DNA of 64,000 bases from an uncultured Candidatus Saccharibacteria bacterium (GCA_963835055.1 CAWIDU010000001.1:124182-188181), one strand, 5' to 3'; positions 2,144 to 38,007 are shown, counted from the first letter of the stretch. Made by a program: numbers and translations. The notes: generated by a model not told the origin, from the sequence alone.

Positions 2144-2896
2144 ATGAGCGCTTATGCTATAATTACAAACAGTATGCCCCGCTACATTGAAACCAGCCAA
2201 GCCAAGAAAGTCCACGAAACAGCACCTGCTGTTGTCAAAAGTCCCGGCCGGCCCTTGCTTCAGAAAATTTCCGATCGAATTCACTTCCGTCGCAATAGAC
2301 ATATATTGGAGCGTAGTGAATGGCATGCGCGCCGGGAAAACATATTGTTGCGCCAACAAAATGAGGCTGCGCGTAGCGATGCCCATCATGACGAGCTAAC
2401 TGGCTTATTAAACTTGCGCGGCCTTAAGGAATATCTCGAGCAGGTTGAATCCCCTGCCGCGCTCTTATATATTGACGGCACCAACCAAAAAGCCGTTAAC
2501 GACCGGTTTGATCATGATCGTGGGAATCAAGCTATTGAAGGCACGGTCGAAGCAATCAAGCGAGCCCTGCGTCCAGATGATGTACTAGCCCGCATTGGCG
2601 GTGACGAGTACCTAGCCGTCTTGAGCAAAGCCCGCCCTAGTGGTGATGATCCCGACAAATCGGCAGCCGACATCTTGAGTGGTACTCTGGGCCGCATAAG
2701 GAGCGATGAGAGTCCCTACTTCTTAAGCAGGCATCCGCATTTTGCAGCTGTTGGCTATGACATTGCTATCGGAGGCGCGCTCTGGGAAGAGGGCATGTCA
2801 ATTGACCAAGTACGTCTAGCCGCCGAAGCTGATATGACCGCAAACAAAGCCGAACAGCACGCTATCCACGGCCAGCATCGACCGCCTACGTCTTAA
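2144..2896 (+). CDS. GGDEF-domain diguanylate cyclase (GGDEY variant, RxxD I-site present), no recognisable sensor domain
   Basis: ORF 2108..2896; I prefer the ATG at 2144. Motifs seen: LTGLLNLRG, DRFDHDRGNQ, RPDDVLARIGGDEYLAVL. Confidence 0.8.
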   Translation: MSAYAIITNSMPRYIETSQAKKVHETAPAVVKSPGRPLLQKISDRIHFRRNRHILERSEWHARRENILLRQQNEAARSDAHHDELTGLLNLRGLKEYLEQVESPAALLYIDGTNQKAVNDRFDHDRGNQAIEGTVEAIKRALRPDDVLARIGGDEYLAVLSKARPSGDDPDKSAADILSGTLGRIRSDESPYFLSRHPHFAAVGYDIAIGGALWEEGMSIDQVRLAAEADMTANKAEQHAIHGQHRPPTS

Positions 2897-3972
2897 TTAT
2901 TATTAAATTCTTCTAGAGTTTGCCGCTGCTCGCGGCTGAGTCGGGTCGGTGTATCAACCAGAATCGTTACGATATGCGGGCCGCGACTGTTACCCTTGAG
3001 GTGCGGCACGCCGTGATCGGATAATTTGAAGTCGGAGCCGGACTGCGTACCAGCCGGAACTTTCATGCGAACCGGGCCATCGACGGTATCAACGTCAATT
3101 TCGGTGCCGAGAGCCGCGTCGACCATGCCGACGTGCTCTTCGCTGAGGATCAAGTCGCCTTCGCGGGTGAAACGCTTGTGCGATTTGACCCGAACATTTA
3201 CATAAAGATCACCTTTCGGACCGTTGGCGATGGCTTCGCCGTGCTCGCGCAATCTGATAGTCGCGCCGTCATCGATACCGGCCGGGATCTTGAGTTGGAC
3301 GGTTTGGCGTTTGCCCACGGTGCCTTTGCTGTGACAGACGGTGCAAGCTTTCTCAGGAATTTTGCCGCTGCCGTGACACTTGGGGCAGACGCTGGCCTGC
3401 TGGATATTGCCGAAAACGGTGCGCGTGACGTTGACCACTTGGCCGCTGCCGTGGCATTGGTCGCAGGTCTTTAATTCATAACCGGGTTCGACAGTTGTGC
3501 CTTTGCAGTGCTCGCAGGTGTCATCAAGGTGCAGGCTGAGGTCGACGTCGGTGCCGAAAACGGCTTGCTCGAAACTTATTTCTACCGCCGCTTCGACATC
3601 GCGGCCGCGGGCTTGGCGCTGTTGGCCCCCTGCACCACCGAAACCGCCGCCGAAGAAACTGCTGAAAATATCGCCCAGACCCAAGTCGCCGAAATCGAAG
3701 TTGACGTTCTGGCCCCCGGCGCCGCCGTATCCGCCGTCGAATGGATTGCCGGAGGCGCCGCCCACGCCGGCGTGACCGAATTGGTCATATCTTTTCCGTT
3801 TGTCAGTATCCTTCAATACTTCGTAAGCTTCGTTCAGCTCTTTGAATTTGGCTTCGTCGCCGCCACGGTCAGGATGGTGCTCGACAGCCGCCCGACGAAA
3901 AGCTTTCTTGACCTCGTCAGCGCTGGCGTCTTTCTTGACACCCAGGACTTCGTAATAATCACGTTTCGCCAT
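2893..3972 (-). CDS. dnaJ: Chaperone DnaJ
   Basis: J-domain with HPD (HHPDRGG), G/F-rich linker, four CxxCxGxG zinc-finger repeats; 359 aa. Confidence 0.97.
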   Translation of the reverse strand: MAKRDYYEVLGVKKDASADEVKKAFRRAAVEHHPDRGGDEAKFKELNEAYEVLKDTDKRKRYDQFGHAGVGGASGNPFDGGYGGAGGQNVNFDFGDLGLGDIFSSFFGGGFGGAGGQQRQARGRDVEAAVEISFEQAVFGTDVDLSLHLDDTCEHCKGTTVEPGYELKTCDQCHGSGQVVNVTRTVFGNIQQASVCPKCHGSGKIPEKACTVCHSKGTVGKRQTVQLKIPAGIDDGATIRLREHGEAIANGPKGDLYVNVRVKSHKRFTREGDLILSEEHVGMVDAALGTEIDVDTVDGPVRMKVPAGTQSGSDFKLSDHGVPHLKGNSRGPHIVTILVDTPTRLSREQRQTLEEFNNN

Positions 3973-4252
3973 TTTTTCGAGCCTGTTCGTACTTTATTGA
4001 ACCTTCAACTTTTCGAAAAACATACTCGCATCTTTCCGGCGGTATACCATATTCCTCTGAAATACGCCTCTCTAATTCATCCAGGCAAATATCTCGAGTA
4101 ACAGGATCTCCAAAATCTTCTCGGGCAAGCACGCTCAGCACTTCTCGAACTCTCCCATCTCGACACACCTGATGAACTGCCCAATCCTCTTGGGTCTTAG
4201 GGGGAATTAGCCCCCAAAGAAAATCTCCTGTAATTTCTCTCTCACCATTCAT
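3959..4252 (-). CDS. Hypothetical 97-aa protein, paralog-like to 4274..4567
   Basis: Same strand as dnaK/dnaJ. Its stop overlaps the dnaJ start by 14 nt. Shares the L-x-R-x-[IL]-x3-YG[IL]xP motif with the neighbouring 97-aa ORF. AT-richer than dnaJ/dnaK. Confidence 0.6.
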   Translation of the reverse strand: MNGEREITGDFLWGLIPPKTQEDWAVHQVCRDGRVREVLSVLAREDFGDPVTRDICLDELERRISEEYGIPPERCEYVFRKVEGSIKYEQARKNGET

Positions 4253-4273
4253 AGTCCTATCCTAGTGAGATGA

Positions 4274-4567
4274 TTACGCTTCGTTAGCATAGCCTGATGC
4301 CGCCTTTCGTACTTCGTACTCTTCGCAGGCGATTGCAAGCGATTCCGATATAATTTGCCTAGTTTGGCCAGGGCTTAAGCCATAAGTCCGTTGTAGATCA
4401 CGTTGAAGTTTATGCTCTGTCATATCAGTAATATATTGCGCGGTCTCCAGATCAACCTCAGGCGGCAGCTCTTCGGTGGTTTCAAGCCAGCAGTACCAGC
4501 GCAGCATGGGATGCTGTCTGGCGCTAAAAGTTCTGGATTGATGGTTGAGAAATACTAATTCGCCCAT
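4274..4567 (-). CDS. Hypothetical 97-aa protein, paralog-like to 3959..4252
   Basis: Same-strand ORF between dnaK and dnaJ; contains LQRDLQRTYGLSPGQ...EEYEVRK. I recognise no known domain. Confidence 0.6.
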   Translation of the reverse strand: MGELVFLNHQSRTFSARQHPMLRWYCWLETTEELPPEVDLETAQYITDMTEHKLQRDLQRTYGLSPGQTRQIISESLAIACEEYEVRKAASGYANEA

Positions 4568-4583
4568 TGTCTTATTTTACCAG

Positions 4584-4844
4584 TTAACTTCTAATAAGTT
4601 TTTTCTTGCGGCTAGAGATTTCGGAGACAACCTTTTCGACTTTGTCAAAATTGTCAGTAGTTGTTTCTAGTATTAATTTAACCTTGCGCGTTGTACCAAT
4701 TTGGCCCTGCCAATTATGTTGATTCTTAACCTCCATCAATTCAACATTGGTCACCAAATTTTTTTCCAAAAGCATGTCAGCAATCCGCTGAGCTTCCTGC
4801 CAGCTGCCACAGGTCAGAACCAGTTCAACAAAATTAGTCTGCAT
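4584..4844 (-). CDS. Small CutA-like (divalent-cation tolerance fold) protein, tentative
   Basis: 86 aa. VLTCGSWQEAQRIADMLLEKNLVTNVELM...W.G.I...KVKLILETT resembles the CutA1 pattern. Overlaps the upstream ORF by 11 nt. Confidence 0.5.
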   Translation of the reverse strand: MQTNFVELVLTCGSWQEAQRIADMLLEKNLVTNVELMEVKNQHNWQGQIGTTRKVKLILETTTDNFDKVEKVVSEISSRKKKLIRS

Positions 4845-5250
4845 CTAAACGCGCCTCGACAGCCTCGCCAGAATCCCTGATGGCTGCTATGCCTTTATTA
4901 AACTCAGTTTGGAAGTTAAGAAATTCAGCGGTTGAGGCGGGAATTCTATGCGCTCTGCTGTCATCTATGCTCCCCTCATCAGCGTTAATGGATACATCTA
5001 TAGAGCCATCTCCGTTGACAAGCCTCAACAGTCTTACGGTAATGGGCTCTTCGCCTTTCTCACCAACTAACATGATATCCGCGGCAGTCCAACTTTCGCC
5101 GGTTTCGGGGTCAATAGCCTGCCTAGCCCTGATTGAATAGCCAATTGCAGGATCTAGTAATGAAGAGCCCACGGTCGTAAATGGTTGATCGCCGAAAAGT
5201 TCATCAACGTCAGGACCCCCAAATCTCTGCCTAGGAGGGGTTTCTGACAT
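4834..5250 (-). CDS. Hypothetical acidic 138-aa protein
   Basis: ORF begins 1 nt after the dnaK stop, on the same strand. Very D/E-rich with no recognisable motif. Confidence 0.6.
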   Translation of the reverse strand: MSETPPRQRFGGPDVDELFGDQPFTTVGSSLLDPAIGYSIRARQAIDPETGESWTAADIMLVGEKGEEPITVRLLRLVNGDGSIDVSINADEGSIDDSRAHRIPASTAEFLNFQTEFNKGIAAIRDSGEAVEARLDAD

Positions 5251-5251
5251 G

Positions 5252-7171
5252 CTAATCTTTCTCGTCTTTGTCGTCGACGACTTCGCCTTCGATGGGTTCG
5301 TCTTTGGAACCGGGCTTGGCAGAATCTTCTGAATCTTCGGCTGGGGTTTCTGAGGCCTCGGCGGCTTCGTACATTTTGGCGCCGATGGGCATTAGTTTGT
5401 CATTTAGTTCTTTGGCGGCGGCTTCCAGGGCGTCTTTGTCGGCGCTGTCGTCGGCCACGACTTTCTTGGCGGCTTCGACGGCCTCGTCGAGTGTCTTGAT
5501 GTCATCTTCGGCGATCTTGTCGGCGCTGTCTTTCTTCAACTTCTCGGCTTGGTAGATGGCGCTGTCCAGCAGGTTGCGGGTCTCGATGGTTTCGCGCTTG
5601 GCTTTGTCTTCGTCGGCGTGGGCTTCGGCTTCCTTGGCCATTTTCTCGACTTCGGCCTTATCAAGGTTTCCCGAACCTTGGATGGTAATGCTCTGCTCTT
5701 TGCCGGAGCCTTTGTCCTTGGCGGTGACGTTGAGGATGCCGTTGGCGTCGATGTTGAAGGTCACCTCGACCTGCGGCACGCCGCGCGGCGCAGGCGGGAT
5801 GCCATCCAGTACGAAGCGCCCGAGACTCTTGTTGTCGGCAATCATTTCGCGCTCGCCTTGAGCAACGTGGATTTCAACCTGTGGCTGGTTGTCAGCGGCT
5901 GTTGAGAATGTTTCCGACTTGCTGGTTGGGATGGTGGTGTTGCGCTCGATCAGCTTGGTCATAACGCCGCCGAGGGTTTCAATGCCGAGTGATAGTGGCG
6001 TGACGTCTAGCAATAGAACGTCTTTGACGTCACCCTGCAGAACACCGCCCTGAATGGCGGCACCGATAGCTACGACTTCGTCAGGATTGACGCCCTTCAT
6101 CGGGTCTTTGCCGAAGATGCTCTTAACTTTTTCCTGAACGGCCGGCATGCGCGTCATACCACCGACCAAGACGACAGCGTCGATATCGCTGGCTTTGAGG
6201 CCAGCGTCTTTGAGCGCCTTTTCACAGGGCGCGGCGGTCTTGTCGATTAATTCGGCGACCAGGCTTTCCAGCTTGGCGCGGGTCAGCTTGTGCTCGAAGT
6301 GCTTGGGGCCTTCGGCGTCGGCCGTCAGGAATGGCAGGTTGACGTTGACTTCTTGGGCAGTGCTGAGCTCAATCTTGGCCTTTTCGGCTTCGTCGCGCAG
6401 ACGCTGCATGGCGGCATTGTCATTGGTGATGTCGATGCCGTGCTCTTTCTTAAATTCGTCGGCGAAGTAGTTGATGATGACGCGGTCGAAATCGGCGCCG
6501 CCGAGATGAGTGTCGCCGTTGGTACTTTTAACTTCGAAAACGCCGTCACCCAATTCCAGGATGCTGACGTCAAAAGTTCCGCCACCGAGGTCGTAGACGG
6601 CAATTTTCTCGTCTTTCTTGTCGGCTTTGTCGAGACCGTAAGCCAAGGCCGCGGCCGTCGGCTCGTTGATGATTCGCTTGACTTCCAGGCCAGCAATTTT
6701 TCCGGCATCTTTGGTGGCTTGACGTTGGGAATCATCAAAGTACGCGGGAACGGTGATGACGGCTTCGGTAACTTTGTCGCCCAGGAAGCTCTCGGCGTCA
6801 GTTTTCAACTTGCCGAGGATCATGGCGCTGATTTCTTCGGGGCTGTATTCTTTGTCGCCCATTTTGACTTTGACGTCGTTGCCGCTTTTGACAATTTCGT
6901 AGCCCATCAGCTTGATATCACGTTGGACGGCTTTGTCGCTGAAATTGCGGCCAATCAGGCGTTTGACTTCATAAATCGTATTCTTGGGATTAGTCACCTG
7001 CTGGCGGCGAGCCACTTGGCCAACCAAGCGTTCGCCATTTTTGTTAATCGCCACAACTGATGGCGTGGTGCGGGCACCTTCGCTATTAGCGATAATTTCC
7101 GGCTTGCCGGACTGCATAACGGCCATCGCCGAGTTGGTTGTTCCTAAATCGATTCCAATAATTTTTGCCAT
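5252..7171 (-). CDS. dnaK: Chaperone DnaK (Hsp70)
   Basis: 639 aa; [28 protein letters not shown] signatures and an acidic C-terminal tail. Confidence 0.99.
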
Positions 7172-7203
7172 AAAATTGCCCTTCCCTATTGATTAACAGT
7201 TAA

Positions 7204-7230
7204 TTAGCAGTCAAAAGTTACTACTGCCAG
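7204..7230 (-). promoter_or_regulatory. Degenerate second CIRCE-like inverted repeat
   Basis: TTAGCAGTC-N9-TACTGCCAG. The left arm matches CIRCE in 8/9 positions and the right arm in about 6/9. It lies directly downstream of the main CIRCE, over the putative -10/+1 region. Confidence 0.35.
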
Positions 7231-7257
7231 TGTAGTTAATTAGCACTCGGGTGTCAA
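7229..7257 (-). promoter_or_regulatory. Putative sigma-70-type dnaK promoter embedded in CIRCE
   Basis: Minus strand reads TTGACA (7252-7257), a 17-nt spacer, then TACACT (7229-7234). The -35 hexamer lies in the CIRCE spacer. Confidence 0.45.
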
Positions 7258-7266
7258 GAGTGCTAG
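7240..7266 (-). promoter_or_regulatory. CIRCE operator (HrcA binding site) upstream of dnaK
   Basis: TTAGCACTC-GGGTGTCAA-GAGTGCTAG versus the consensus TTAGCACTC-N9-GAGTGCTAA. Confidence 0.85.
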
Positions 7267-7293
7267 ATGTATTGATTTTTACAACTATGGCTT

Positions 7294-7683
7294 TTAGTCA
7301 AGATTGAAGAAAACCCGGATATCTTCTCCTACAGTTATAGGAGGTCCCAGCTCCCCAATATATGTCTTGCGGCCCGGTGGAGTTTCAATATATGACATTT
7401 CTTCGCCATCTGGGCTGATCCAGGGATGCCGCGTCACCCAGGCGCAGAGCCCGCCAAATTCTTCTGGCAGCCCGCCGCGCGCGATCCACTCTTCATACAA
7501 TTCTTCTAGTTCTTCTTGGGCAATGCTGCGAAAGCTATGCGCACTAGGTTCAACGTCTAAACGATGGAGGGCTTCGTCAAGCCGGGCGTAATTTGAGCCA
7601 GTGATGAGTGTCTCGCCGTCATCTAAGAAGTCGGTCTGTTCGAGACCGAGGCCTTGGTAAGGATTGGGGTGTTGTTCGTTCAT
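7294..7683 (-). CDS. Hypothetical acidic 129-aa protein
   Basis: Same-strand ORF between grpE and the dnaK promoter. Its start overlaps the grpE stop by 4 nt. No recognisable motif. Confidence 0.6.
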   Translation of the reverse strand: MNEQHPNPYQGLGLEQTDFLDDGETLITGSNYARLDEALHRLDVEPSAHSFRSIAQEELEELYEEWIARGGLPEEFGGLCAWVTRHPWISPDGEEMSYIETPPGRKTYIGELGPPITVGEDIRVFFNLD

Positions 7684-8150
7684 GCGGCTTCCGTCTTGAC
7701 ACGCACGATGGCGTGGCGCAGAACTTCGTCGCCGAGTTTGTAGCCGGCTTGCAGTTCTTCGCTGACGATTTCGTGCTGGCCGGCGCCTTCTTCTATGCTG
7801 ACGGCCTCGTGCAGGTGCGGGTCGAAGTGCTGGCCGACGGTTTCGATACGCTCGACGCCCATTTGTTGGATAGTCGCCTCGAATTGCTTGACGACGGCTT
7901 GGACGCCTCGGATATAATCATTGTTTTCCAGATCTTTCGGCGCGTGCTTGAGGGCCCGCTCGAAGTTGTCGATGACCGGTAGCAGCTCACGCACAACATC
8001 GGCTTTCAACCGAGTTCGCAAACCAGTGATTTCTTCCTCGTGCCGACGGCGCAAATTGACGGCATCGGCTCGCTCGTGCTGGAGGGCTTGGGTGAGCTCA
8101 GCAAGCCGTAAACTATCGGCTTTGGGTTTCTTGGGCTTATTAGGTTTCAT
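7680..8150 (-). CDS. grpE: Nucleotide exchange factor GrpE
   Basis: ORF 7680..8243; I prefer the internal ATG at 8148-8150 (MKPNKPKK...). VVRELLPVIDNFERAL and the C-terminal beta domain are typical of GrpE. Confidence 0.9.
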   Translation of the reverse strand: MKPNKPKKPKADSLRLAELTQALQHERADAVNLRRRHEEEITGLRTRLKADVVRELLPVIDNFERALKHAPKDLENNDYIRGVQAVVKQFEATIQQMGVERIETVGQHFDPHLHEAVSIEEGAGQHEIVSEELQAGYKLGDEVLRHAIVRVKTEAA

Positions 8151-8382
8151 AGCGCTCCAAAAAATTTGCCCGTAAATGCTCAACCAGGGCCCCGGCCAGG
8201 ACGGCGGTTGATATAAGTAATAATCCACCGACGCCGCTAGCAATGTCTTGGCGCATCAATCCTTCCACCGATTCGGTGGGCGAAGGTGTTTGCTCGAGAT
8301 GCCAAGCTCCGCCTTCGTCCTTGTAGAAAAATCCGCCTCGACAATCGATAATTTCTCGCTTAGATTGAGAAGATTTTCTCAT
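8140..8382 (-). CDS. Hypothetical 80-aa protein with a C-terminal-half TM helix
   Basis: Same-strand ORF between hrcA and grpE. VGGLLLISTAVLAGALV is a hydrophobic segment. Overlaps the grpE start by 11 nt. Confidence 0.5.
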   Translation of the reverse strand: MRKSSQSKREIIDCRGGFFYKDEGGAWHLEQTPSPTESVEGLMRQDIASGVGGLLLISTAVLAGALVEHLRANFLERYET

Positions 8383-8693
8383 AGGAAAAGTTCTCCGCGT
8401 ATGGCTTCAGATCTTTCATGATCTATCATAAATTCAACGGTAGCCACTCCTACCTTGTGAGAAGCCTCAATTTCAGCATCTGAAAATTCTAGACTTAGCA
8501 GAGTTCGATATGCTCTTTGATAGCCTTCTATATATCCTGGCACGTCAAAGATCACGCCGGGCTCGCTGGCTTTGCGAGCACTTGGCACCAGGTGGACAAA
8601 CATAACATCTGAGCCGTGATCAACTCTTTCATCACTGTCGGCATCGACAAAGTCTGCGGCTGTAAGTTCTGGTTCTTCCTCGAAACTAGGCAT
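8379..8693 (-). CDS. Hypothetical acidic ~104-aa protein
   Basis: ORF 8379..8732; I prefer the ATG at 8691-8693 (MPSFEEEPELT...), which overlaps the hrcA stop within ATGCCTAG. Confidence 0.55.
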   Translation of the reverse strand: MPSFEEEPELTAADFVDADSDERVDHGSDVMFVHLVPSARKASEPGVIFDVPGYIEGYQRAYRTLLSLEFSDAEIEASHKVGVATVEFMIDHERSEAIRGELFL

Positions 8694-9390
8694 ACAAGCC
8701 CTCCTCCAATTCTTGGCCGGCGCGGGAGACAAGGGTCATGACGTCGCGGTAACTCTGACGGGTTGGGCCGAGAGTGCCGATGTAGCTGCGGTCGCTGAAT
8801 GGGCTACGGAAACGGCAAATGATTAGGCTGACGCCAGCACTGCGACCGATTGGGTTTTCGCTGCCGATGTAGACGCTGAGTGGTTCGTTGGGCGCTGCCT
8901 CGCGCAGCCACGGCTCGAGATTGTCCAGTAGATTGGCAACTTGTTGGACTTGGGCGCCGCCGATGAATTCCGGCTGACCGAAGAGGTTGCCTAGGCCACT
9001 GATGTAGAGCTGGTTGCCGATGGTCGCCAGGCCGAGGTTGTGGGTCAGCTCGACCAGGGTGTCGACAGCATTGCGGATCATGCGCTCCGGCGCGCCGGCT
9101 TGCTGGACACGAGCCGACAGAGCTTTCTCAGCTCGGCCGGGCAGTAGTTGCTCAGTGTCGTCATGCAGGCTGTTGACGTAGAAGCGGTAACCGCGGTCGG
9201 TCGGAATGCGGCCGGCGCTGGTGTGCGGCTGCATGATGAAACCCAGACGCTCCAACTCGGCCATTTCGGCGCGGATGGTCGCCGAGCTGACATTGAAAAG
9301 TTTGGCCAGCAAGGTGCTGCCGACCGGGCTGGCGACTTCGGCGTACTGCTCGATAACGGCGCTCAGAATTTTCTGCTGGCGTTCAGTCAT
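8686..9390 (-). CDS. hrcA: Heat-inducible transcription repressor HrcA (short form, 234 aa)
   Basis: N-terminal wHTH MTERQQKILSAVIEQY...GSTLLAKLFNVSSATIRAEMAELERLGFI..PHTSAGRIPTDRGYRFYV and C-terminal GTLGPTRQSYRDVMTLV. Confidence 0.9.
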   Translation of the reverse strand: MTERQQKILSAVIEQYAEVASPVGSTLLAKLFNVSSATIRAEMAELERLGFIMQPHTSAGRIPTDRGYRFYVNSLHDDTEQLLPGRAEKALSARVQQAGAPERMIRNAVDTLVELTHNLGLATIGNQLYISGLGNLFGQPEFIGGAQVQQVANLLDNLEPWLREAAPNEPLSVYIGSENPIGRSAGVSLIICRFRSPFSDRSYIGTLGPTRQSYRDVMTLVSRAGQELEEGLYA

Positions 9391-9413
9391 AAGGCTCTCG
9401 TTTATGTCTGTAT

Positions 9414-9441
9414 CTTATAATTTTTAGCACTCGGGTGTCAA
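9414..9441 (-). promoter_or_regulatory. Putative sigma-70-type hrcA promoter embedded in CIRCE
   Basis: Minus strand reads TTGACA (9436-9441), a 16-nt spacer, then TATAAG (9414-9419). Confidence 0.5.
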
Positions 9442-9450
9442 GAGTGCCAG
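9424..9450 (-). promoter_or_regulatory. CIRCE operator upstream of hrcA
   Basis: TTAGCACTC-GGGTGTCAA-GAGTGCCAG. The left arm and spacer are identical to the dnaK copy. Confidence 0.85.
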
Positions 9451-9553: not shown

Positions 9554-11167
9554 ATGACATTCAAAAAACTCAATGCTCGGGGTTTCTCCCACGACATAGT
9601 GATGGTACTCTTCGTAATGATCTTCGCTATCGTTGGTGTTGGATACCTGGTAGCCTCCCATGCCGCTACCTCCACCACGCCTTATACCTCCACCAATCAA
9701 TTTAGTAGCTTTGTCTATGTGCCGCCGGCTAAAATTACCTGTCGGCGGGTATCGACGGTGCCTAACCTGACGCACTCCAACACCCAAAACCTGACCTTAC
9801 AGTTCAACACTAATAACTCTTGTTACCAATCTAGTACTACTGCTATGTACGAATTAACTCTGCCAGCTAACACCGTCGCTAATTCCCTCACCATGAATGT
9901 CTCCTATATAAACAATGGCTATAACACGGACTTTGTAGCGGCTGGTACTCCCTCCAACATGGTCTGGAAGGTTAATACCCATAGTACCCAAACTAACCAA
10001 TCAGTCACTATTACCCTATCCAACAGCCCCACCGTTATCTACTTTGGCCTAAGCGGTAGTGGGGCTAGCGGCGGCTTCAAAGGCAGCTACCCAGCGATAC
10101 GTAACTTCATAGTTAACTCCTACACCTTGAACGGCACGACGACTGTTACGACAGCTAACCCTACTCCGCCACCTTCATCACCACCAGTGTCGACAGGTGG
10201 TTCATGCTCAACCACCACTCCAGCTACCCCCAGCACAGACTCCGGACTACTGTTCAATGGAACGCAGATAAGCGAATACAACCTCGACCAATCAGTTCAT
10301 CTCGTACTAGCACCGGATCCTGTTAGCGGGACCTGCGATTCAGTCTTCGAAATGGCGGTCAATAACGGTGATACAAATGCCAACTATGGGTCAGTCGAAC
10401 CGACCGATAACCCACGGTCTCAACTGCTGGGGCCAGCAACTCTGACTGCCGGCGAGAATTACTGGTGGTCCACCAAGTTCTTGTTGCCATCAAGTGCCAT
10501 ACTGCCAAGTGATCCCTTCCCGACATCTTTCCCAGCCAGCGGCTGGATGAGCCTCATGGAGGGCGCTTACGGGCCGCCTTTCAACGGCTCCCCACCCGTT
10601 TCGTTTGGGGTTGGCGAAGTGAATGGCGTCGAACAGATCGGCTGGCAACGTAACGGTAATGTCAGTGCTAATGGTGCTAACAATAAGTATGACGAGCCCT
10701 ATACCACGCCAGCGGCTCCATATATTGGCCAGTGGACATACGTCCTATTCAACGAGCAACTCGGTACCTGCCCTCAAACTCAGGCCGAACTGTCGGCCAA
10801 CACCTGTCCCAGCGACCCTGGGTATATAAAAATGTGGCTCAGTACTGATCCGACTACCTTAGGTACCTCGGCTACTCAACTCACATTCTTCAATAGTGGC
10901 ATATACAACTTCAACAGTATTGCCCCGACACAACAGGTAAACATGTCAACCTTGGATAATAGCAATGACTGTGCTCTCAGTTACAATGCAACATTTTGTA
11001 CCACTGGTACCGGCTATAACAATAACTTTGACGTTATCCAGCAGTATCGGGAGTCTAATATGGGTGGTGAGTTCAACGATACTGTCACAACTTACGAGGG
11101 ACCGCTGATTATGGGACAGACCGAGGCCTCAGTGCTGAACGCTATTACCTCCGACGCCGGCGACTAG
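9554..11167 (+). CDS. Secreted or anchored 537-aa protein with a 'KLNARGFSHD' N-terminal signal; C-terminal ConA-like / polysaccharide-lyase-like domain (tentative)
   Basis: N-terminus MTFKKLNARGFSHDIVMVLFVMIFAIVGVGYLVASHAA, then a P/S/T linker. The C-terminal NPRSQLLG...ENYWWSTKFLLPSS...GWMSLMEGAYGPPFNGSPPVSFGV resembles the PF14099-type jelly-roll. Confidence 0.8.
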   Translation: MTFKKLNARGFSHDIVMVLFVMIFAIVGVGYLVASHAATSTTPYTSTNQFSSFVYVPPAKITCRRVSTVPNLTHSNTQNLTLQFNTNNSCYQSSTTAMYELTLPANTVANSLTMNVSYINNGYNTDFVAAGTPSNMVWKVNTHSTQTNQSVTITLSNSPTVIYFGLSGSGASGGFKGSYPAIRNFIVNSYTLNGTTTVTTANPTPPPSSPPVSTGGSCSTTTPATPSTDSGLLFNGTQISEYNLDQSVHLVLAPDPVSGTCDSVFEMAVNNGDTNANYGSVEPTDNPRSQLLGPATLTAGENYWWSTKFLLPSSAILPSDPFPTSFPASGWMSLMEGAYGPPFNGSPPVSFGVGEVNGVEQIGWQRNGNVSANGANNKYDEPYTTPAAPYIGQWTYVLFNEQLGTCPQTQAELSANTCPSDPGYIKMWLSTDPTTLGTSATQLTFFNSGIYNFNSIAPTQQVNMSTLDNSNDCALSYNATFCTTGTGYNNNFDVIQQYRESNMGGEFNDTVTTYEGPLIMGQTEASVLNAITSDAGD

Positions 11168-11182: not shown

Positions 11183-11905
11183 CTAAACATTCGTTGCTAG
11201 ATAGTCGCGGATGGCTTTGGTCAGTTGTTGAGCCACCATTCGAGCTTTACTTTCGGTAGCAGTTCCACGCGATTTGTCCTGGACGATCGCCTGAACTTCC
11301 TCAAAAGTACCGTCTAAGTCAGCATTAACGACCGCTATATAATAATCAGTGGATAGTAGTTCTTTGATTTCCGCCAAAGCGGTTTCTAGCCGGCGTCGCA
11401 TATCCTTTTCATCAACTACGTTGTTGCGCTGACGCAGGCGATTTCGCCAGGTTTCAAAATCAGGTGGCAATAAAAAAATTGCCATGATGTTCGGATCAAT
11501 AGCCTTGTACTCGGCGACGCCTTGGACTTCAATGTCAGCTAGCGCGATCTGGTGGGCGTCATGGGCTGCTTGGATCTCAGCTACACTGGTGCCATAAAGG
11601 TTGTCACTGAAAATTTTGGCTTCCACAAAAGCCTGCTCATTAAGCAACTGAGCTGCTTGAGTCTCGTCGATGAAATGGTATTCCCGGCCATCTCGTTCTT
11701 GAACGCCGTGGTTGACGCGCGGCGACCGGGTAGTATGCGACACAATGTGATGATAGCCGCCGGCAGCTAGCAATCCATCTTTTAGAGCACTTTTACCGGA
11801 GCCGCTAGGACCGACCAATAGCAGGATAGGCGTGCTCTTGATTAACTCGATGGTCGACGGGCTCGGTTGATACGTATCTAACTTTTGAAGGAGAGTCGAT
11901 TCCAT
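11183..11905 (-). CDS. gmk: Guanylate kinase
   Basis: GPSGSGKS P-loop; HTTRSPR...G.EYHF; 240 aa. Confidence 0.85.
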   Translation of the reverse strand: MESTLLQKLDTYQPSPSTIELIKSTPILLLVGPSGSGKSALKDGLLAAGGYHHIVSHTTRSPRVNHGVQERDGREYHFIDETQAAQLLNEQAFVEAKIFSDNLYGTSVAEIQAAHDAHQIALADIEVQGVAEYKAIDPNIMAIFLLPPDFETWRNRLRQRNNVVDEKDMRRRLETALAEIKELLSTDYYIAVVNADLDGTFEEVQAIVQDKSRGTATESKARMVAQQLTKAIRDYLATNV

Positions 11906-22342: not shown

Positions 22343-24226
<1,884 letters not shown>

Positions 24227-24261: not shown

Positions 24262-25149
24262 CTAGCGCTCCCGGCCTTCGAGTGCCAAATAACTCTTGTG
24301 CACCGCCATGGAATGTCCCCGCCGAACATCGAAATGCTGCCCCGGCCGGGCCGTCTTGGCAGCCACCACCAGCCGCTCCAAGCTCCGCCGGTCGAAGCCG
24401 GACAAATTATGGGCAATCAACCAGGCGGCCATCACCTCGCGGGCCACCTCGTGTGGCAGGTGAATGAACCAAGCCCGGTCCAGCCGGCCGCGCCGCGACT
24501 GGGTGTGCAGCGCCCGGACCAGGGCGTCGTCGATTTGCCGGTTAATCCCCCGCAGCTCTGTGATGTTGCCGGCCAACTTAACTCGGCTGGCGGCATCGAG
24601 CCGCGGCAGCAAATGGCGCCGGATACGGTTGCGGGCGTATTTCTCGTCCTGGTTGGTGCTGTCCTCGCGCCAATGCAAACCCTGTTCCCGGGCATAGGCG
24701 ACAATGTCCTGCTTGGACACGCCGAGCAGCGGCCGCTCGATGTCGTGCCGGCTGGCCAGTGATGTCAACCCACGGCGACCGCTGCCCCGCAGAACGTTGA
24801 AAACAGCTGTTTCCAGCACATCGTCGCCGTGGTGAGCCGTAACGATCGCTCGGGCGGCGCTAGTCTGGCGAATTTTATACAAAAAGTCATAGCGCGCCCG
24901 CCGCGCAGCCGCTTCACTGGCATTTTCCCCCAAATCCGCCCGGTCATAGACGAAAGGCAATTTGTAGCGCTTCGCCAAATTCTGGACGAACAGCCGATCC
25001 TCAGCCGAATCCGGCCGGATGCCATGGTCGAAATGGGCGACGATTAGCTTCAACTTCGGATTTTTCCGCAAAACATCCAATAGCGTCACCGAATCCACGC
25101 CACCGCTAACAGCCAAAACGTAGGTGCCTGGCTGCAAAGATAAATCCAT
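24262..25149 (-). CDS. tilS: tRNA(Ile)-lysidine synthase TilS (short form)
   Basis: PP-loop VSGGVDS; HFDHGIR; synteny next to ftsH. Confidence 0.9.
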   Translation of the reverse strand: MDLSLQPGTYVLAVSGGVDSVTLLDVLRKNPKLKLIVAHFDHGIRPDSAEDRLFVQNLAKRYKLPFVYDRADLGENASEAAARRARYDFLYKIRQTSAARAIVTAHHGDDVLETAVFNVLRGSGRRGLTSLASRHDIERPLLGVSKQDIVAYAREQGLHWREDSTNQDEKYARNRIRRHLLPRLDAASRVKLAGNITELRGINRQIDDALVRALHTQSRRGRLDRAWFIHLPHEVAREVMAAWLIAHNLSGFDRRSLERLVVAAKTARPGQHFDVRRGHSMAVHKSYLALEGRER

Positions 25150-26162: not shown

Positions 26163-26239
26163 GCCGGGGTAGCTCAGTTGGTTAGAGCGTAGGACTCATA
26201 AGCCTAAGGTCGCGAGTTCAAGCCTCGCCCCCGGTACCA
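26163..26239 (+). tRNA. tRNA with CAU anticodon (Met, fMet or lysidine-modified Ile2; not resolvable by eye)
   Basis: Hand-folded cloverleaf. Acceptor GCCGGGG/CCCCGGU (G1-U72 wobble), D-arm GCUC/GAGC, anticodon loop CUCAUAA, T-arm GCGAG-UUCAAGC-CUCGC, encoded CCA. A31-G39 mismatch. Confidence 0.9.
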
Positions 26240-34613: not shown

Positions 34614-35357
34614 TTAAGCAGCCAGCTGAAGTTTTTGTCGTTCTTCAGCTAATCTTGTTCGTGCAAGCTTATTCCTGAATTCAGGGCCATTGGCTGTGTC
34701 CACAACATCTACCACGCGGGGTCCTGACTTTTTCATCGCTGCCACAAAAAGTTCTCCCCTTGGGTTCATTTTTGCCAGTAAACGTAGTAACTTTTCGGAG
34801 CGTTCTATTCGTCTAAATTTATCTAGGTATTCGGCATACTCACCTAATCTGCCCGTAGCTTGAAGTACATCTTCAGCGGCAACATAGCGTAAATTTTCCA
34901 ACCCATTCGCCTGAGCATGAGTTAATACCCTTTTTGCATGATACCTTAATCCTACGGTCAATACTCCTGCCTCGGGCTGACGAGAAAGATAGTCTGCCAA
35001 TCCCCTAACATGGAGAACTGTGTTATCCAGCTTTTCCCCTTGGGCCTCGTCTAAGACAATTCTTTTACTAGCGGGAAAATCAGGTTTTAGCTGCAGCACT
35101 CTTTTTTCTTCAAGCTCAGAGGTGGACGGAAGGCCAGGATAGCAGGTTTCGCCAATCATTAGTAACTCTGCATCTTGATGATGTTCCCAAACTGCTTCTC
35201 CGGCATCTGTACTCGCTCTAGTTGGCATTGATAATACGGGAGTGAGCCTATTGTTAACAACAGTGATATTCGAGCTATAAGGAATAATTGCTATGTAGCC
35301 GATGTTACAAGCTGTAGATAGTGCCTCGTCTGCAGAAATAACCTCAGGTCTGCTCAT
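34614..35357 (-). CDS. Hypothetical protein (possibly DUF218/YdcF-like)
   Basis: 247 aa. IVLDEAQGEKLDNTVLHVRGLADYL...GVLTVGLRYHAKRV loosely resembles the DUF218 core. Confidence 0.6.
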   Translation of the reverse strand: MSRPEVISADEALSTACNIGYIAIIPYSSNITVVNNRLTPVLSMPTRASTDAGEAVWEHHQDAELLMIGETCYPGLPSTSELEEKRVLQLKPDFPASKRIVLDEAQGEKLDNTVLHVRGLADYLSRQPEAGVLTVGLRYHAKRVLTHAQANGLENLRYVAAEDVLQATGRLGEYAEYLDKFRRIERSEKLLRLLAKMNPRGELFVAAMKKSGPRVVDVVDTANGPEFRNKLARTRLAEERQKLQLAA

Positions 35358-35410
35358 ATACTATATTGTAACATATTATGCTTATATCAGCAATCTTCTG
35401 TCTCCACTAA

Positions 35411-35437
35411 AGACCTGGTGGGACTGGAACCTATAAG
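35411..35437. repeat. tRNA T-arm-like direct repeat, copy A
   Basis: AGACCTGGTGGGACTGGAACCTATAA; overlaps the stop codon of the hydrolase gene. Confidence 0.6.
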
Positions 35438-36192
35438 CCTGCAATCCATGTCCTCAGTAATTGCTTTACCTCGGACTGTTCGTGAGGCTCATAAAAACTA
35501 TGCTGCGCACCTTTAACAATATGTATTTCCTTTTTGCCCGGTAGTTTTTCGTAAAGAATTTTCTGATGTTCTGGTGGCGTGGAATCATCCCGTTCGCCAA
35601 CAATCATTATTACGGGCATAATCAGCTTGTCTACGCCATCTAGCAAGTTGTAATTCATACGGTCTTCCATGTGTGACCATTTCAGTCGCTTTTCTTGTTT
35701 GCCATCATGGCTCATGGTGACCCGAATGCCATTTCGTTTCCAAGCTTCCAAATCATTAGCTTTGGTTTGCATGCTTAATTCGCCGGATATAACTGTTGAA
35801 ATTGGTGCCAAGGCTTTCACTTTTTCCGGGTGCTTTTTGGCAAACAAGGCTACAGAAATTCCACCAAGGCTATGGCCGCACAAAATGAACGGTTCGATAT
35901 ACCAAGGTTGAGTAGCTGCCCAGGCAATGACATCTTCTAGGTCAGCGTAGTAGTTCGTAATTGTAGCATCCTCATATTTACCGCCTGTGCTTTCACCAAA
36001 TGTATGAACGGCGTCCCAGCTAACCACTGTGTAACCACTCTCTAGGAAAGCCTCAGCCATTGCCCGTACATGTGGCTGCTCTTTGTTGCCACTAAGTCCA
36101 TGGGCCACAAAAGCCAGCTTCCCATTTTCGGCCGATTTTTCGACTAGGACGCTAACTTTATTCCCGTCACGACTGGAAATAAAAGTTTTCAT
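35431..36192 (-). CDS. Alpha/beta hydrolase
   Basis: GHSLGG nucleophile elbow; 253 aa. Confidence 0.85.
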   Translation of the reverse strand: MKTFISSRDGNKVSVLVEKSAENGKLAFVAHGLSGNKEQPHVRAMAEAFLESGYTVVSWDAVHTFGESTGGKYEDATITNYYADLEDVIAWAATQPWYIEPFILCGHSLGGISVALFAKKHPEKVKALAPISTVISGELSMQTKANDLEAWKRNGIRVTMSHDGKQEKRLKWSHMEDRMNYNLLDGVDKLIMPVIMIVGERDDSTPPEHQKILYEKLPGKKEIHIVKGAQHSFYEPHEQSEVKQLLRTWIAGL

Positions 36193-36208
36193 ATCATGAA
36201 GTATAGCA

Positions 36209-36237
36209 AGTACCAGGTAAGACTAGAACCGTATTAA
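36209..36237. repeat. tRNA T-arm-like direct repeat, copy B
   Basis: AGTACCAGGTAAGACTAGAACCGTATTAA; lies 17 nt upstream of the hydrolase start. Confidence 0.55.
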
Positions 36238-36474
36238 CAGAGGTGGAAATAAAATGAGACTGGTCTTGGCACCAGCTCTTATCTGAGTTAAGTCGATGGA
36301 AAACACTCTCTGGGGGCTATAATCTGTTAGCCTGCTCTAGCAACTAGGAGTGGAGCTATGCCTAATATTGAATATAATGGAACGTTATTGATCGATTACA
36401 AATACAATTGGCACCGCAACTGCCAGACAATTTGCATCCTGGCCACCTATAACATGATTATTACAAGACTTGGA

Positions 36475-37110
36475 TTATCTATATTCTGCTCGTATAGTTT
36501 CTATATCGGGAAGAAGTTTACAAATTAAGGCTGACCCTATACGCCAGCCATACTCTTCGGGCTCTATTGGCTTGAGACCCCACAAACGACCCCTAAGAGA
36601 TCTTGCGACGCTTAAACTCTTTGCCGGCATTCCATCTTCAATAGCCGCAGCAGTTGTGTGGCGAATAAGCGCATTAGAAACACTTAAAAGACCGCTGTAT
36701 TGTGCGTCCTTAGATTTGAGCACGGTGTAAGCCGCCAAAAGACTCAGATTGCTGCGCTTTAGGGAACGCTCTGCACTTCTTACTATTCTTAATCTGTGAT
36801 TTGTTTCGAATACTCCATATGATTCAAGGCCTGGGTCGGTGAAACCGTTCATCAAATCCTGATAACCTTTTAGAAATTCATTTACATTTGTAGCACGCTC
36901 CTGGCCGGAACCAACAACAACAAAAGGTCGCCTCAACAACGGCTGCCCAATTCCATCCACACCTACCATACTCACACCGGCAGCAGCCACTATTATTGCC
37001 TCTTCAGGTTCAGCCTCTTCTGGTATATCCCAATGTGCGTAATGTTCATTATCATTACTAGCGTTAGCGTATGCTTGCAAAGACGGTGGAGGGGCGTTAG
37101 GTTTTGGCAT
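36475..37110 (-). CDS. Hypothetical 211-aa protein in a low-GC segment
   Basis: Clean ORF with no recognisable motif. A 60-nt sample I hand-counted is about 35% GC. Confidence 0.6.
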   Translation of the reverse strand: MPKPNAPPPSLQAYANASNDNEHYAHWDIPEEAEPEEAIIVAAAGVSMVGVDGIGQPLLRRPFVVVGSGQERATNVNEFLKGYQDLMNGFTDPGLESYGVFETNHRLRIVRSAERSLKRSNLSLLAAYTVLKSKDAQYSGLLSVSNALIRHTTAAAIEDGMPAKSLSVARSLRGRLWGLKPIEPEEYGWRIGSALICKLLPDIETIRAEYR

Positions 37111-37276: not shown

Positions 37277-37351
37277 TGGTTGCGGGGGCAGGACTCGAAC
37301 CTGCGACCTCGTGGTTATGAGCCACGCGAGCTGCCGCTGCTCCACCCCGCA
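37277..37351 (-). tRNA. tRNA with CAU anticodon (best initiator candidate of the three)
   Basis: Hand-folded. Acceptor UGCGGGG/CCCCGCA (U1-A72), D-stem GAGC/GCUC (A11-U24), anticodon stem CGUGG/CCACG, loop CUCAUAA, T-arm GCAGG-UUCGAGU-CCUGC, encoded CCA. Confidence 0.9.
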
Positions 37352-37931: not shown

Positions 37932-38007
37932 GGGGGTGTAGCTCAGTGGTTAGAGCAGTCGGCTCATAACTGATTGGTCCTTGGTTCAAATCCAAGCACC
38001 CCCACCA
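37932..38007 (+). tRNA. tRNA with CAU anticodon (elongator-type: Met or Ile2)
   Basis: Acceptor GGGGGUG/CACCCCC, D-arm GCUC/GAGC, anticodon stem GUCGG/CUGAU, loop CUCAUAA, T-arm CUUGG-UUCAAAU-CCAAG, encoded CCA. Confidence 0.9.

Follow-up and report, generated by a model that had tools for sequence, protein, structure and literature searches.

Small-protein genes between the chaperone genes of the hrcA-grpE-dnaK-dnaJ operon in Saccharimonadia

We analyzed the hrcA-grpE-dnaK-dnaJ heat-shock operon in a 64,000-nucleotide stretch of DNA, referred to here as the window, from an uncultured Candidatus Saccharibacteria bacterium (GCA_963835055.1 CAWIDU010000001.1:124182-188181). Seven small open reading frames (ORFs), designated A-G, occupy the junctions between the chaperone genes on the same strand. 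These ORFs are probably real genes for small proteins that form a regular part of a Saccharimonadia-specific operon of the HrcA/CIRCE type (CIRCE, controlling inverted repeat of chaperone expression), and the evidence suggests that they are inherited vertically and diverge fast rather than being foreign cassettes. The window is a well-populated example of a class-wide architecture and not a single-genome oddity, since the corresponding junctions are filled in most of the Saccharimonadia surveyed.

The operon of DnaK, DnaJ and GrpE with hrcA is among the most conserved features of bacteria, and its class-wide interleaving with small genes in episymbionts with reduced genomes was unexpected. Orphan-looking small genes in a conserved operon are already known; what is new is the class-wide, slot-specific pattern observed here. 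Full-text searches, with incomplete coverage of the literature, returned no earlier account of small ORFs within the dnaK operon of Saccharibacteria.

Organization of the heat-shock operon

A first-pass annotation of the window had claimed seven same-strand ORFs between the chaperone genes, and a six-frame ORF list confirmed all of them. The features of the operon are listed below (nt, nucleotides; aa, amino acids; pI, isoelectric point).

9412-9450, minus strand: promoter 1 and CIRCE, 5' of hrcA (CIRCE at 9424-9450; promoter-like site at 9441-9412, 10/12)
8686-9390, minus strand: hrcA, 234 aa, short form; Pfam HrcA 4.4e-15 and HrcA_DNA-bdg 7.3e-6
8379-8693, minus strand: ORF A, 104 aa, pI 4.34; its start overlaps the hrcA stop by 8 nt
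8140-8382, minus strand: ORF B, 80 aa; overlaps A by 4 nt and grpE by 11 nt
7680-8150, minus strand: grpE, ATG at 8150; Pfam GrpE 3.1e-37; N-terminus aligns with relatives
7294-7683, minus strand: ORF C, 129 aa, pI 4.30; overlaps grpE by 4 nt; last gene of unit 1
7229-7266, minus strand: promoter 2 and CIRCE, 5' of dnaK (CIRCE at 7240-7266; promoter-like site at 7257-7229)
5252-7171, minus strand: dnaK, identified by Pfam; nearest relatives at 88-92% identity
4834-5250, minus strand: ORF D, 138 aa, pI 4.28; begins 1 nt past the dnaK stop
4584-4844, minus strand: ORF E, 86 aa, CutA1-like, truncated C-terminally; overlaps D by 11 nt
4274-4567, minus strand: ORF F, 97 aa, pI 4.95
4270-4290, minus strand: candidate relic dnaJ start (ATGCTAACGAAGCGTAATCAT) at the 3' end of F; 18/21 match to ATGCCAACGAAGCGTGATTAT
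3959-4252, minus strand: ORF G, 97 aa, pI 4.84; overlaps the dnaJ start by 14 nt
2893-3972, minus strand: dnaJ, from the six-frame ORF list; DnaJ Pfam domains in orthologs; 89% aa identity to the dnaJ of the related locus L096

Overlaps of 8, 4, 11, 4, 11 and 14 nt were found as claimed, in agreement with the proposed coupling of most small ORFs to their neighbours. The non-overlapping junctions have gaps of +1, +16 and +21 nt, in addition to the 122-nt promoter gap between C and dnaK. Identities of the four chaperone genes were confirmed by Pfam. The HrcA domain match spans profile positions 89-215 only, and the protein is 233-235 aa long in all Saccharimonadia relatives; Firmicutes HrcA proteins are ~340 aa. 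The products of A, C and D are strongly acidic, as had been noted (pI 4.34, 4.30 and 4.28), and those of F and G are acidic as well.

Coding signal, homologs and protein models

The three sense frames of each ORF were scored with a codon-usage model trained on the other ORFs of the window, and the frame of the ORF ranked first in 7/7 cases, with a small margin for B. Exact products of six of the seven ORFs are present in public records as called genes. F has been called publicly from an internal ATG, giving 77 aa (L001 1243-1476); conservation of the N-terminus MGEL.(Y/F)LN in its homologs (P0128, P0141 and L002) supports the 97-aa start as the likely correct one.

An exhaustive HMMER search of 1.84 billion representatives, with a single query made by concatenating A, B, C, D, F and G, recovered every self protein and just 20 others. 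Nine of these were homologs of C (best 50% identity, 2.5e-25), seven of G (best 4.6e-11) and two of F (best P0128, 48% identity, 3e-22), A and D had one each (P0136, 6e-8, and P0143, 8e-5, respectively), and no homolog of B was detected in this set. A profile search of 5.8 billion proteins enlarged the C family to ~11 members only, and a metagenome scan with a narrower C alignment yielded one spurious high-GC contig (L090) and no added contexts.

All homologs whose context could be read occupied the same slot of the same operon, and no homolog turned up elsewhere than in such operons among the 1.84 billion representatives. Homologs of C lie immediately 3' of grpE. The A homolog fills the hrcA-grpE slot with 8-nt overlaps on both sides, and the D homolog directly follows dnaK and is itself followed by CutA1, a 107-aa ORF and dnaJ. 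The F homolog P0128, in L096, is directly upstream of dnaJ and overlaps its start. In the G family, the C-terminus is GEA in 5/7 members and GAA in 1/7, which corresponds to the +1-frame reading of a MAKRD-type dnaJ start, so those members must overlap dnaJ as G does; a G-family ORF before dnaJ was also present in L024 and L062. For E, a CutA-like gene was found in the same slot in eight other species and in L002, L007 and L092.

Pfam and NCBIfam scans gave no match for A-D, F and G, a Pfam scan of all C-family and G-family members gave none, and profile and sequence searches of PDB sequences returned no significant match for A-D, F and G. By these searches, A-D, F and G appear to match no described co-chaperone family (J-domain, GrpE, CbpM/MerR_2, HspR), which was also the outcome of the profile-search check proposed with the first-pass annotation. 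E is CutA-like, as that annotation had recognized, and the other six ORFs carry no known domain. E exceeds the Pfam gathering score for CutA1 (1.8e-11; 44.2 bits versus 22.4; profile positions 4-74 of 99) and falls below the cut-off of the NCBIfam CutA equivalog (45 bits versus 120). Since solved CutA chains of ~102 aa align at residues 5-72 only (PDB 1p1l at 3.4e-7), E is a C-terminally truncated CutA-like protein.

AlphaFold2 (AF2) models built from the family alignments were all-helical bundles for both C (mean predicted local distance difference test score, pLDDT, of 80, and >90 at residues 30-90) and G (pLDDT 89). Foldseek detected no PDB match below E = 1 for either model, and the C model had no structural match in the viral BFVD set. 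C and G represent two new small helical families with confident models and no structural relatives in PDB. A "G-hydrophobic-S/P-x-x-E" motif seen by eye in A-like proteins, C, F and G was also considered; it was unsupported (hhalign of C versus G, E = 0.59) and probably reflects nothing more specific than helix capping.

B has a C-terminal hydrophobic, transmembrane-like segment (Kyte-Doolittle value, KD, 2.13), and several unrelated ORFs of the hrcA-grpE slot in other species also have a C-terminal hydrophobic segment. A wider class of B-like small membrane proteins is possible. In the same slot, two adjacent ORFs of L011 (7478-7995) and one ORF of L062 (1144-1509) share an (E/L)R.(L/M)EAGR(T/N) motif (phmmer 1e-4), which precedes the C-terminal hydrophobic segment. 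The adjacent L011 ORFs represent another tandem duplication inside the slot.

Occupancy of the junctions across Saccharimonadia

The nearest relatives of the window DnaK (88-92% identity) belong to Candidatus Saccharimonadales or Saccharibacteria. Unannotated small genes were present at the same junctions in all six DnaK relatives, with 3-8 small genes in the five relative contigs that cover the whole operon. A GrpE-alignment scan of GTDB species genomes yielded ~65 Saccharimonadia loci and 15 outgroup loci (Firmicutes and Blastocatellia), and thus covers Saccharimonadia plus a few distant outgroups. With an occupied junction defined as at least 180 nt, occupancy in Saccharimonadia was as follows.

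hrcA-grpE: occupied in 23/69 loci, otherwise typically a -8 nt overlap
grpE-dnaK: occupied in 54/67 loci
dnaK-dnaJ: occupied in 45/51 loci

A comparison of synteny in relatives had been suggested as a check at first pass, and in this comparison small junction genes recur across Saccharimonadia. Junctions reach up to 7.7 kb in this class, and their content is mainly same-strand ORFs. The outgroup loci are mostly tight operons, with median junctions of 53, 65 and 120 nt for hrcA-grpE, grpE-dnaK and dnaK-dnaJ, respectively (15 loci); a few larger outgroup junctions were tentatively attributed to crude start-codon assignment. Each of the 15 hrcA-grpE gaps that measure 180-350 nt has a single frame open across 95% or more of the gap, whereas shuffled sequences predict 0.85 such gaps. 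Union open-frame coverage did not separate real from shuffled junction sequence. The commonest small-ORF family in the slots is CutA-like, with nine members, all in the dnaK-dnaJ slot.

It is very improbable that A-G are chance or mis-called ORFs in non-coding spacers, and this explanation is largely refuted. The ORFs are small and, except for E, lack a Pfam domain, and B has neither a homolog nor more than a weak codon-frame margin. Against this stand the frame test, which all seven pass, the homologs found for six of the ORFs in conserved slots, the confident AF2 models, a cross-species openness that far exceeds the shuffle expectation, and the short junctions of the outgroups.

Some Saccharimonadia carry much longer insertions. 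These measure 2.7-7.7 kb between grpE and dnaK in L021, L041, L058, L060, L063, L067 and L017, and 2.6 kb between hrcA and grpE in L035. In L021, L041, L058, L060, L063, L067 and L035 they consist of arrays of 300-650-aa paralogs with N-terminal hydrophobic segments, in which Ig-like regions and dockerin-like GDANNDNAVGPADF repeats were recognized by eye. This dockerin-like paralog family (23 members) is the largest cluster among the slot ORFs.

Composition, divergence and origin of the small genes

GC content is 0.39-0.52 in the small ORFs and 0.55-0.61 in the chaperone genes; the contrast reported at first pass is real, but smaller than its hand count indicated. GC content at third codon positions (GC3) is 0.32-0.51 in the small ORFs versus 0.64-0.75 in the chaperone genes. 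Across the window, GC3 is bimodal, with conserved core genes at 0.65-0.77 and many others at 0.35-0.55, and A-G all belong to the lower mode. Their low GC3 is the ordinary composition of this genome's non-core genes. Seven of the 17 small low-GC3 ORFs of the window are within the operon, which makes up 10% of its length (binomial p = 9e-4). Elsewhere in the window, three minus-strand ORFs at 34614-37110 (211-253 aa) have a GC3 of 0.35-0.43, the lowest among its long ORFs, and form a further block with non-core composition.

Compared with its relatives, the window loses DNA similarity at the ends of the chaperone genes and regains it at the dnaK promoter/CIRCE region and at the beginning of dnaJ, from the first codons on. 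We estimated the ratio of nonsynonymous to synonymous substitution rates (dN/dS) by the Nei-Gojobori method, for which the usable pairs were window-L096 and window-L002. Values for the comparison with L096 were as follows.

dnaJ: dN/dS 0.09 (dS 0.91)
ORF F: dN/dS 0.34
ORF E: dN/dS 0.60

F is under purifying but relaxed selection, and its amino-acid change is ~5x faster than that of DnaJ. The dN/dS check in a close relative that had been proposed at first pass thus gave values below 1 for F and E, and the pairs for A, C and D were saturated: the proportion of synonymous differences (pS) between these ORFs and their homologs was 0.8-0.96, and a non-homologous control pair gave a similar proportion of nonsynonymous differences (pN). 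The best hrcA nucleotide identity between GTDB species is 86%. Because F-like proteins turn undetectable at GTDB species distances, fast divergence explains most of the orphan status of these genes without transfer.

Gene content upstream of dnaJ differs between close relatives, the order being CutA'-95aa-F-dnaJ in L096 versus CutA'-F-G-dnaJ in the window, and G corresponds to an ~300-nt indel whose boundaries are exactly the F stop and dnaJ codon 2. In L002 and L096, F overlaps the start of dnaJ (ATGCCAACGAAGCGTGATTAT); in the window, the 3' end of F at 4270-4290 (ATGCTAACGAAGCGTAATCAT) agrees with that sequence at 18/21 positions and is a possible relic of a dnaJ start. F and G had been described as looking paralogous; they are indeed related, but only weakly (hhalign E = 0.003, 63 columns, probability 10.6%). 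In the simplest reading, an ancestral pre-dnaJ gene would have been duplicated in tandem along with the first dnaJ codons, after which recombination between the two dnaJ-start repeats would have removed one copy in sister lineages. The dnaJ N-terminus is MPTKRDYY in L002 and L096, the two closest relatives, versus MAKRDYY in the window and most other species, and the extra codon would fit a hybrid start produced by deletion of G between such repeats. Import of G along with a dnaJ start would be expected to leave dnaJ with a mosaic 5' part, and a test for such recombination was negative.

The first-pass annotation had interpreted the small ORFs as acquired cassettes, that is, horizontally transferred, AT-richer foreign genes riding on HrcA/CIRCE control. 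Their GC and GC3 below those of the flanking chaperone genes, the patchy distribution among species, the sharp similarity boundaries at gene ends and the G indel between close relatives are all in keeping with such an origin. However, it is quite improbable in our assessment, and the claim is not supported by comparison with relatives, in which the arrangement is class-wide and homologs occupy the same slots. No homolog was found outside Saccharimonadia-type dnaK operons among the 1.84 billion representatives, all seven ORFs had zero matches to PHROGs and PADLOC at E <= 0.1, and the C model had no BFVD match. Low GC3 is typical of non-core genes throughout the window, dnaJ has no mosaic signal in its 5' part, and at a dS of at least 1, fast divergence alone predicts loss of DNA similarity. 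Integron cassettes in particular were considered and rejected: the ORFs overlap or lie no more than 21 nt apart, and no attC-like sequences or recurrent inverted or direct repeats are present at the junctions. There was no integrase gene among the neighbours checked, and neither insertion sequences (IS) nor flanking mobile-element repeats were found.

Transcription units and translational coupling

CIRCE elements (TTAGCACTC-N9-GAGTGCTAA) are located at 7240-7266, with one mismatch, and at 9424-9450, with two mismatches (chance expectation 0.01). Both overlap sigma-70-like promoters, the -35 hexamer TTGACA falling within the CIRCE spacer. The 9-nt spacer, with TTGACA on the coding strand, is identical in the two elements. 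Operator and promoter thus form a fused element, which was apparently duplicated as one unit. No further consensus promoter was found on the operon strand, and terminator-like sites in the operon showed no excess over shuffles. The genes likely form two units, hrcA-A-B-grpE-C and dnaK-D-E-F-G-dnaJ, with co-transcription predicted from sequence. As proposed at first pass, the small ORFs are positioned inside two HrcA/CIRCE-type units, and the HrcA repressor is encoded by the operon itself (8686-9390).

Among the surveyed loci, 63/66 have CIRCE 5' of hrcA, 51/67 have it no more than 250 nt from dnaK, and 11/51 also have it ahead of dnaJ. The CIRCE promoter and dnaK are separated by a small ORF in L002 and L007. 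The window has one more CIRCE-like element, weaker than the other two (three mismatches), at 24262-24288. It is located at the 3' end of a PP-loop (TilS-like) gene, is closely followed by a TATAAT and precedes the start of an FtsH gene (22343-24226, minus strand) by ~35 nt. FtsH is possibly a member of the HrcA regulon in this organism.

Shine-Dalgarno (SD)-like sequences of their own precede grpE and dnaK, and only a weak one is present 5' of dnaJ. These data bear on the idea that the ORFs are translational bridges, that is, frames kept open mainly to hand ribosomes from one chaperone gene to the next, with largely irrelevant peptides. The ORFs fill the junctions end to end with 4-14 nt overlaps, all 15 short hrcA-grpE gaps are open in one frame though their sequences are unrelated, most slot ORFs lack similarity between species, GC3 is low, and dnaJ, with its weak SD-like sequence, is overlapped by G over 14 nt. 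Nevertheless, we consider this explanation improbable for the set as a whole. Protein-level conservation of the C, F, G and E families extends past saturated synonymous divergence, F has a dN/dS of 0.34, and the C and G models are confident. Moreover, grpE and dnaK have SD-like sequences and dnaK a promoter of its own, and a spacer is unneeded, since chaperone genes abut in many species (hrcA-grpE at -8 nt in most loci). A pure bridge role may hold for A, B and D; protein-level conservation contradicts it for C, F, G and E.

Other features of the window

A 537-aa Ser/Thr/Asn-rich ORF with an N-terminal hydrophobic segment (9554-11167) is divergent from hrcA, and a Pfam scan of this ORF gave no match. 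It looks like an insertion between gmk (11183-11905) and hrcA, because guanylate kinase is the upstream neighbour of hrcA in relatives. The only tRNA genes in the window are three for tRNA-Met (CAT), at 26163-26239, 37277-37351 and 37932-38007, presumably representing the initiator, elongator and tRNA-Ile2 precursor types.

Discussion

The explanation that we favour is that A-G are regular small-protein genes of a class-specific HrcA/CIRCE operon. They would be transcribed by read-through from the CIRCE promoters, many of them would be translated through termination-reinitiation at the 4-14 nt overlaps, and their products would be made together with the chaperones once HrcA repression is lifted. 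Vertical inheritance combined with evolution several-fold faster than that of the chaperones would give these genes their orphan look. Turnover may occur by tandem duplication and deletion at the overlapped junctions, for which the F/G pair and the candidate relic of the dnaJ start could serve as an example.

Several points weigh against this explanation. B has no homolog and A and D have one each, and any protein-level constraint on these three ORFs is putative. Of 249 slot ORFs from the species loci, 170 were singletons at a BLASTP threshold of 1e-3, and an all-against-all phmmer comparison of 170 small slot ORFs, with reversed-sequence decoys, revealed no additional links. In addition, the same slots elsewhere in Saccharimonadia hold plainly unrelated genes, such as those for dockerin-repeat surface proteins, as well as sequences that by eye resemble a helicase, a GNAT protein, a VKOR-like membrane protein and an NYN protein; because unrelated genes share the slots, position alone does not imply a chaperone function. 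Synonymous divergence was saturated in most comparisons and selection was measurable in one pair only, the truncated CutA-like E may be decaying, and expression of the small proteins and their interaction with DnaK, DnaJ and GrpE are predictions.

With regard to function, it is possible, although we lean against it, that the conserved ORFs (C, F/G, D and the CutA-like E) encode small acidic helical accessory factors that bind or tune DnaK, DnaJ or GrpE, much like DafA in Thermus and CbpM, which acts on CbpA, in Escherichia coli. The first-pass annotation had likewise raised co-chaperones or clients as possible roles. This proposal is based on operon position, coupling, size and charge, and on these only. 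For small ORFs that do not serve as accessory factors, hitch-hiking on a strong stress-inducible operon is more probable. Should some of the proteins bind chaperones, new regulators of Hsp70 would be added to the very small set of regulators in these organisms. If none do, the operon would offer a natural system for studying how young or fast-evolving genes are sheltered by coupling and strong promoters, and how orphans arise by divergence and not by transfer.

A broader and unlikely idea is that the operon junctions act as a conserved nursery, in which open frames would be transcribed under stress, coupled, kept, duplicated and diverged, sometimes maturing into small proteins, some of which (in the C, F/G and D families) would now be modulators of DnaK, DnaJ or GrpE. 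If true, there would be a hypervariable, still-evolving layer of Hsp70 regulation in these ultra-small episymbiotic bacteria.

Comparison with known systems

The operon shares gene order, the HrcA repressor and a CIRCE overlapping a sigma-70-type promoter with the Bacillus-type operon, whose tight form is seen in the Firmicutes loci of our outgroup. In contrast to that type, the window has a second CIRCE promoter before dnaK, an HrcA of 234 aa and one to four extra small genes per junction. In Bacillus subtilis, extra genes are downstream of dnaJ and not between the chaperone genes.

Small proteins associated with chaperone genes are known from other bacteria. DafA is encoded in a dnaK operon. 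This small, lineage-restricted protein of Thermus thermophilus is part of a DnaK3-DnaJ3-DafA3 complex (PMC3727329). A-G are likened to DafA by description and not by sequence, and their chaperone binding is predicted only. The family that includes CbpM is probably MerR_2. In Escherichia coli, CbpM is a small protein that is co-transcribed with its neighbour (cbpA-cbpM) and regulates the adjacent CbpA by binding its J-domain (PMC4063869). F and G differ from CbpM in being upstream and not downstream of dnaJ, and they have no Pfam or PDB sequence match. As for CutA1 (PF03091), E scores above the Pfam gathering threshold and matches solved CutA chains, but lacks the last ~25-30 residues, and full-length copies of 105-111 aa occupy the same slot elsewhere.

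Finally, the small genes can be compared with taxonomically restricted (orphan) genes that result from fast divergence and homology-detection failure, a concept treated in PMC7660931. As in that concept, the proteins described here are short and fast-evolving, and their homologs can be detected in the nearest relatives only, always in synteny. The genes described here differ from usual orphan genes in that they cluster, throughout a bacterial class, at fixed positions within a single essential, conserved operon.

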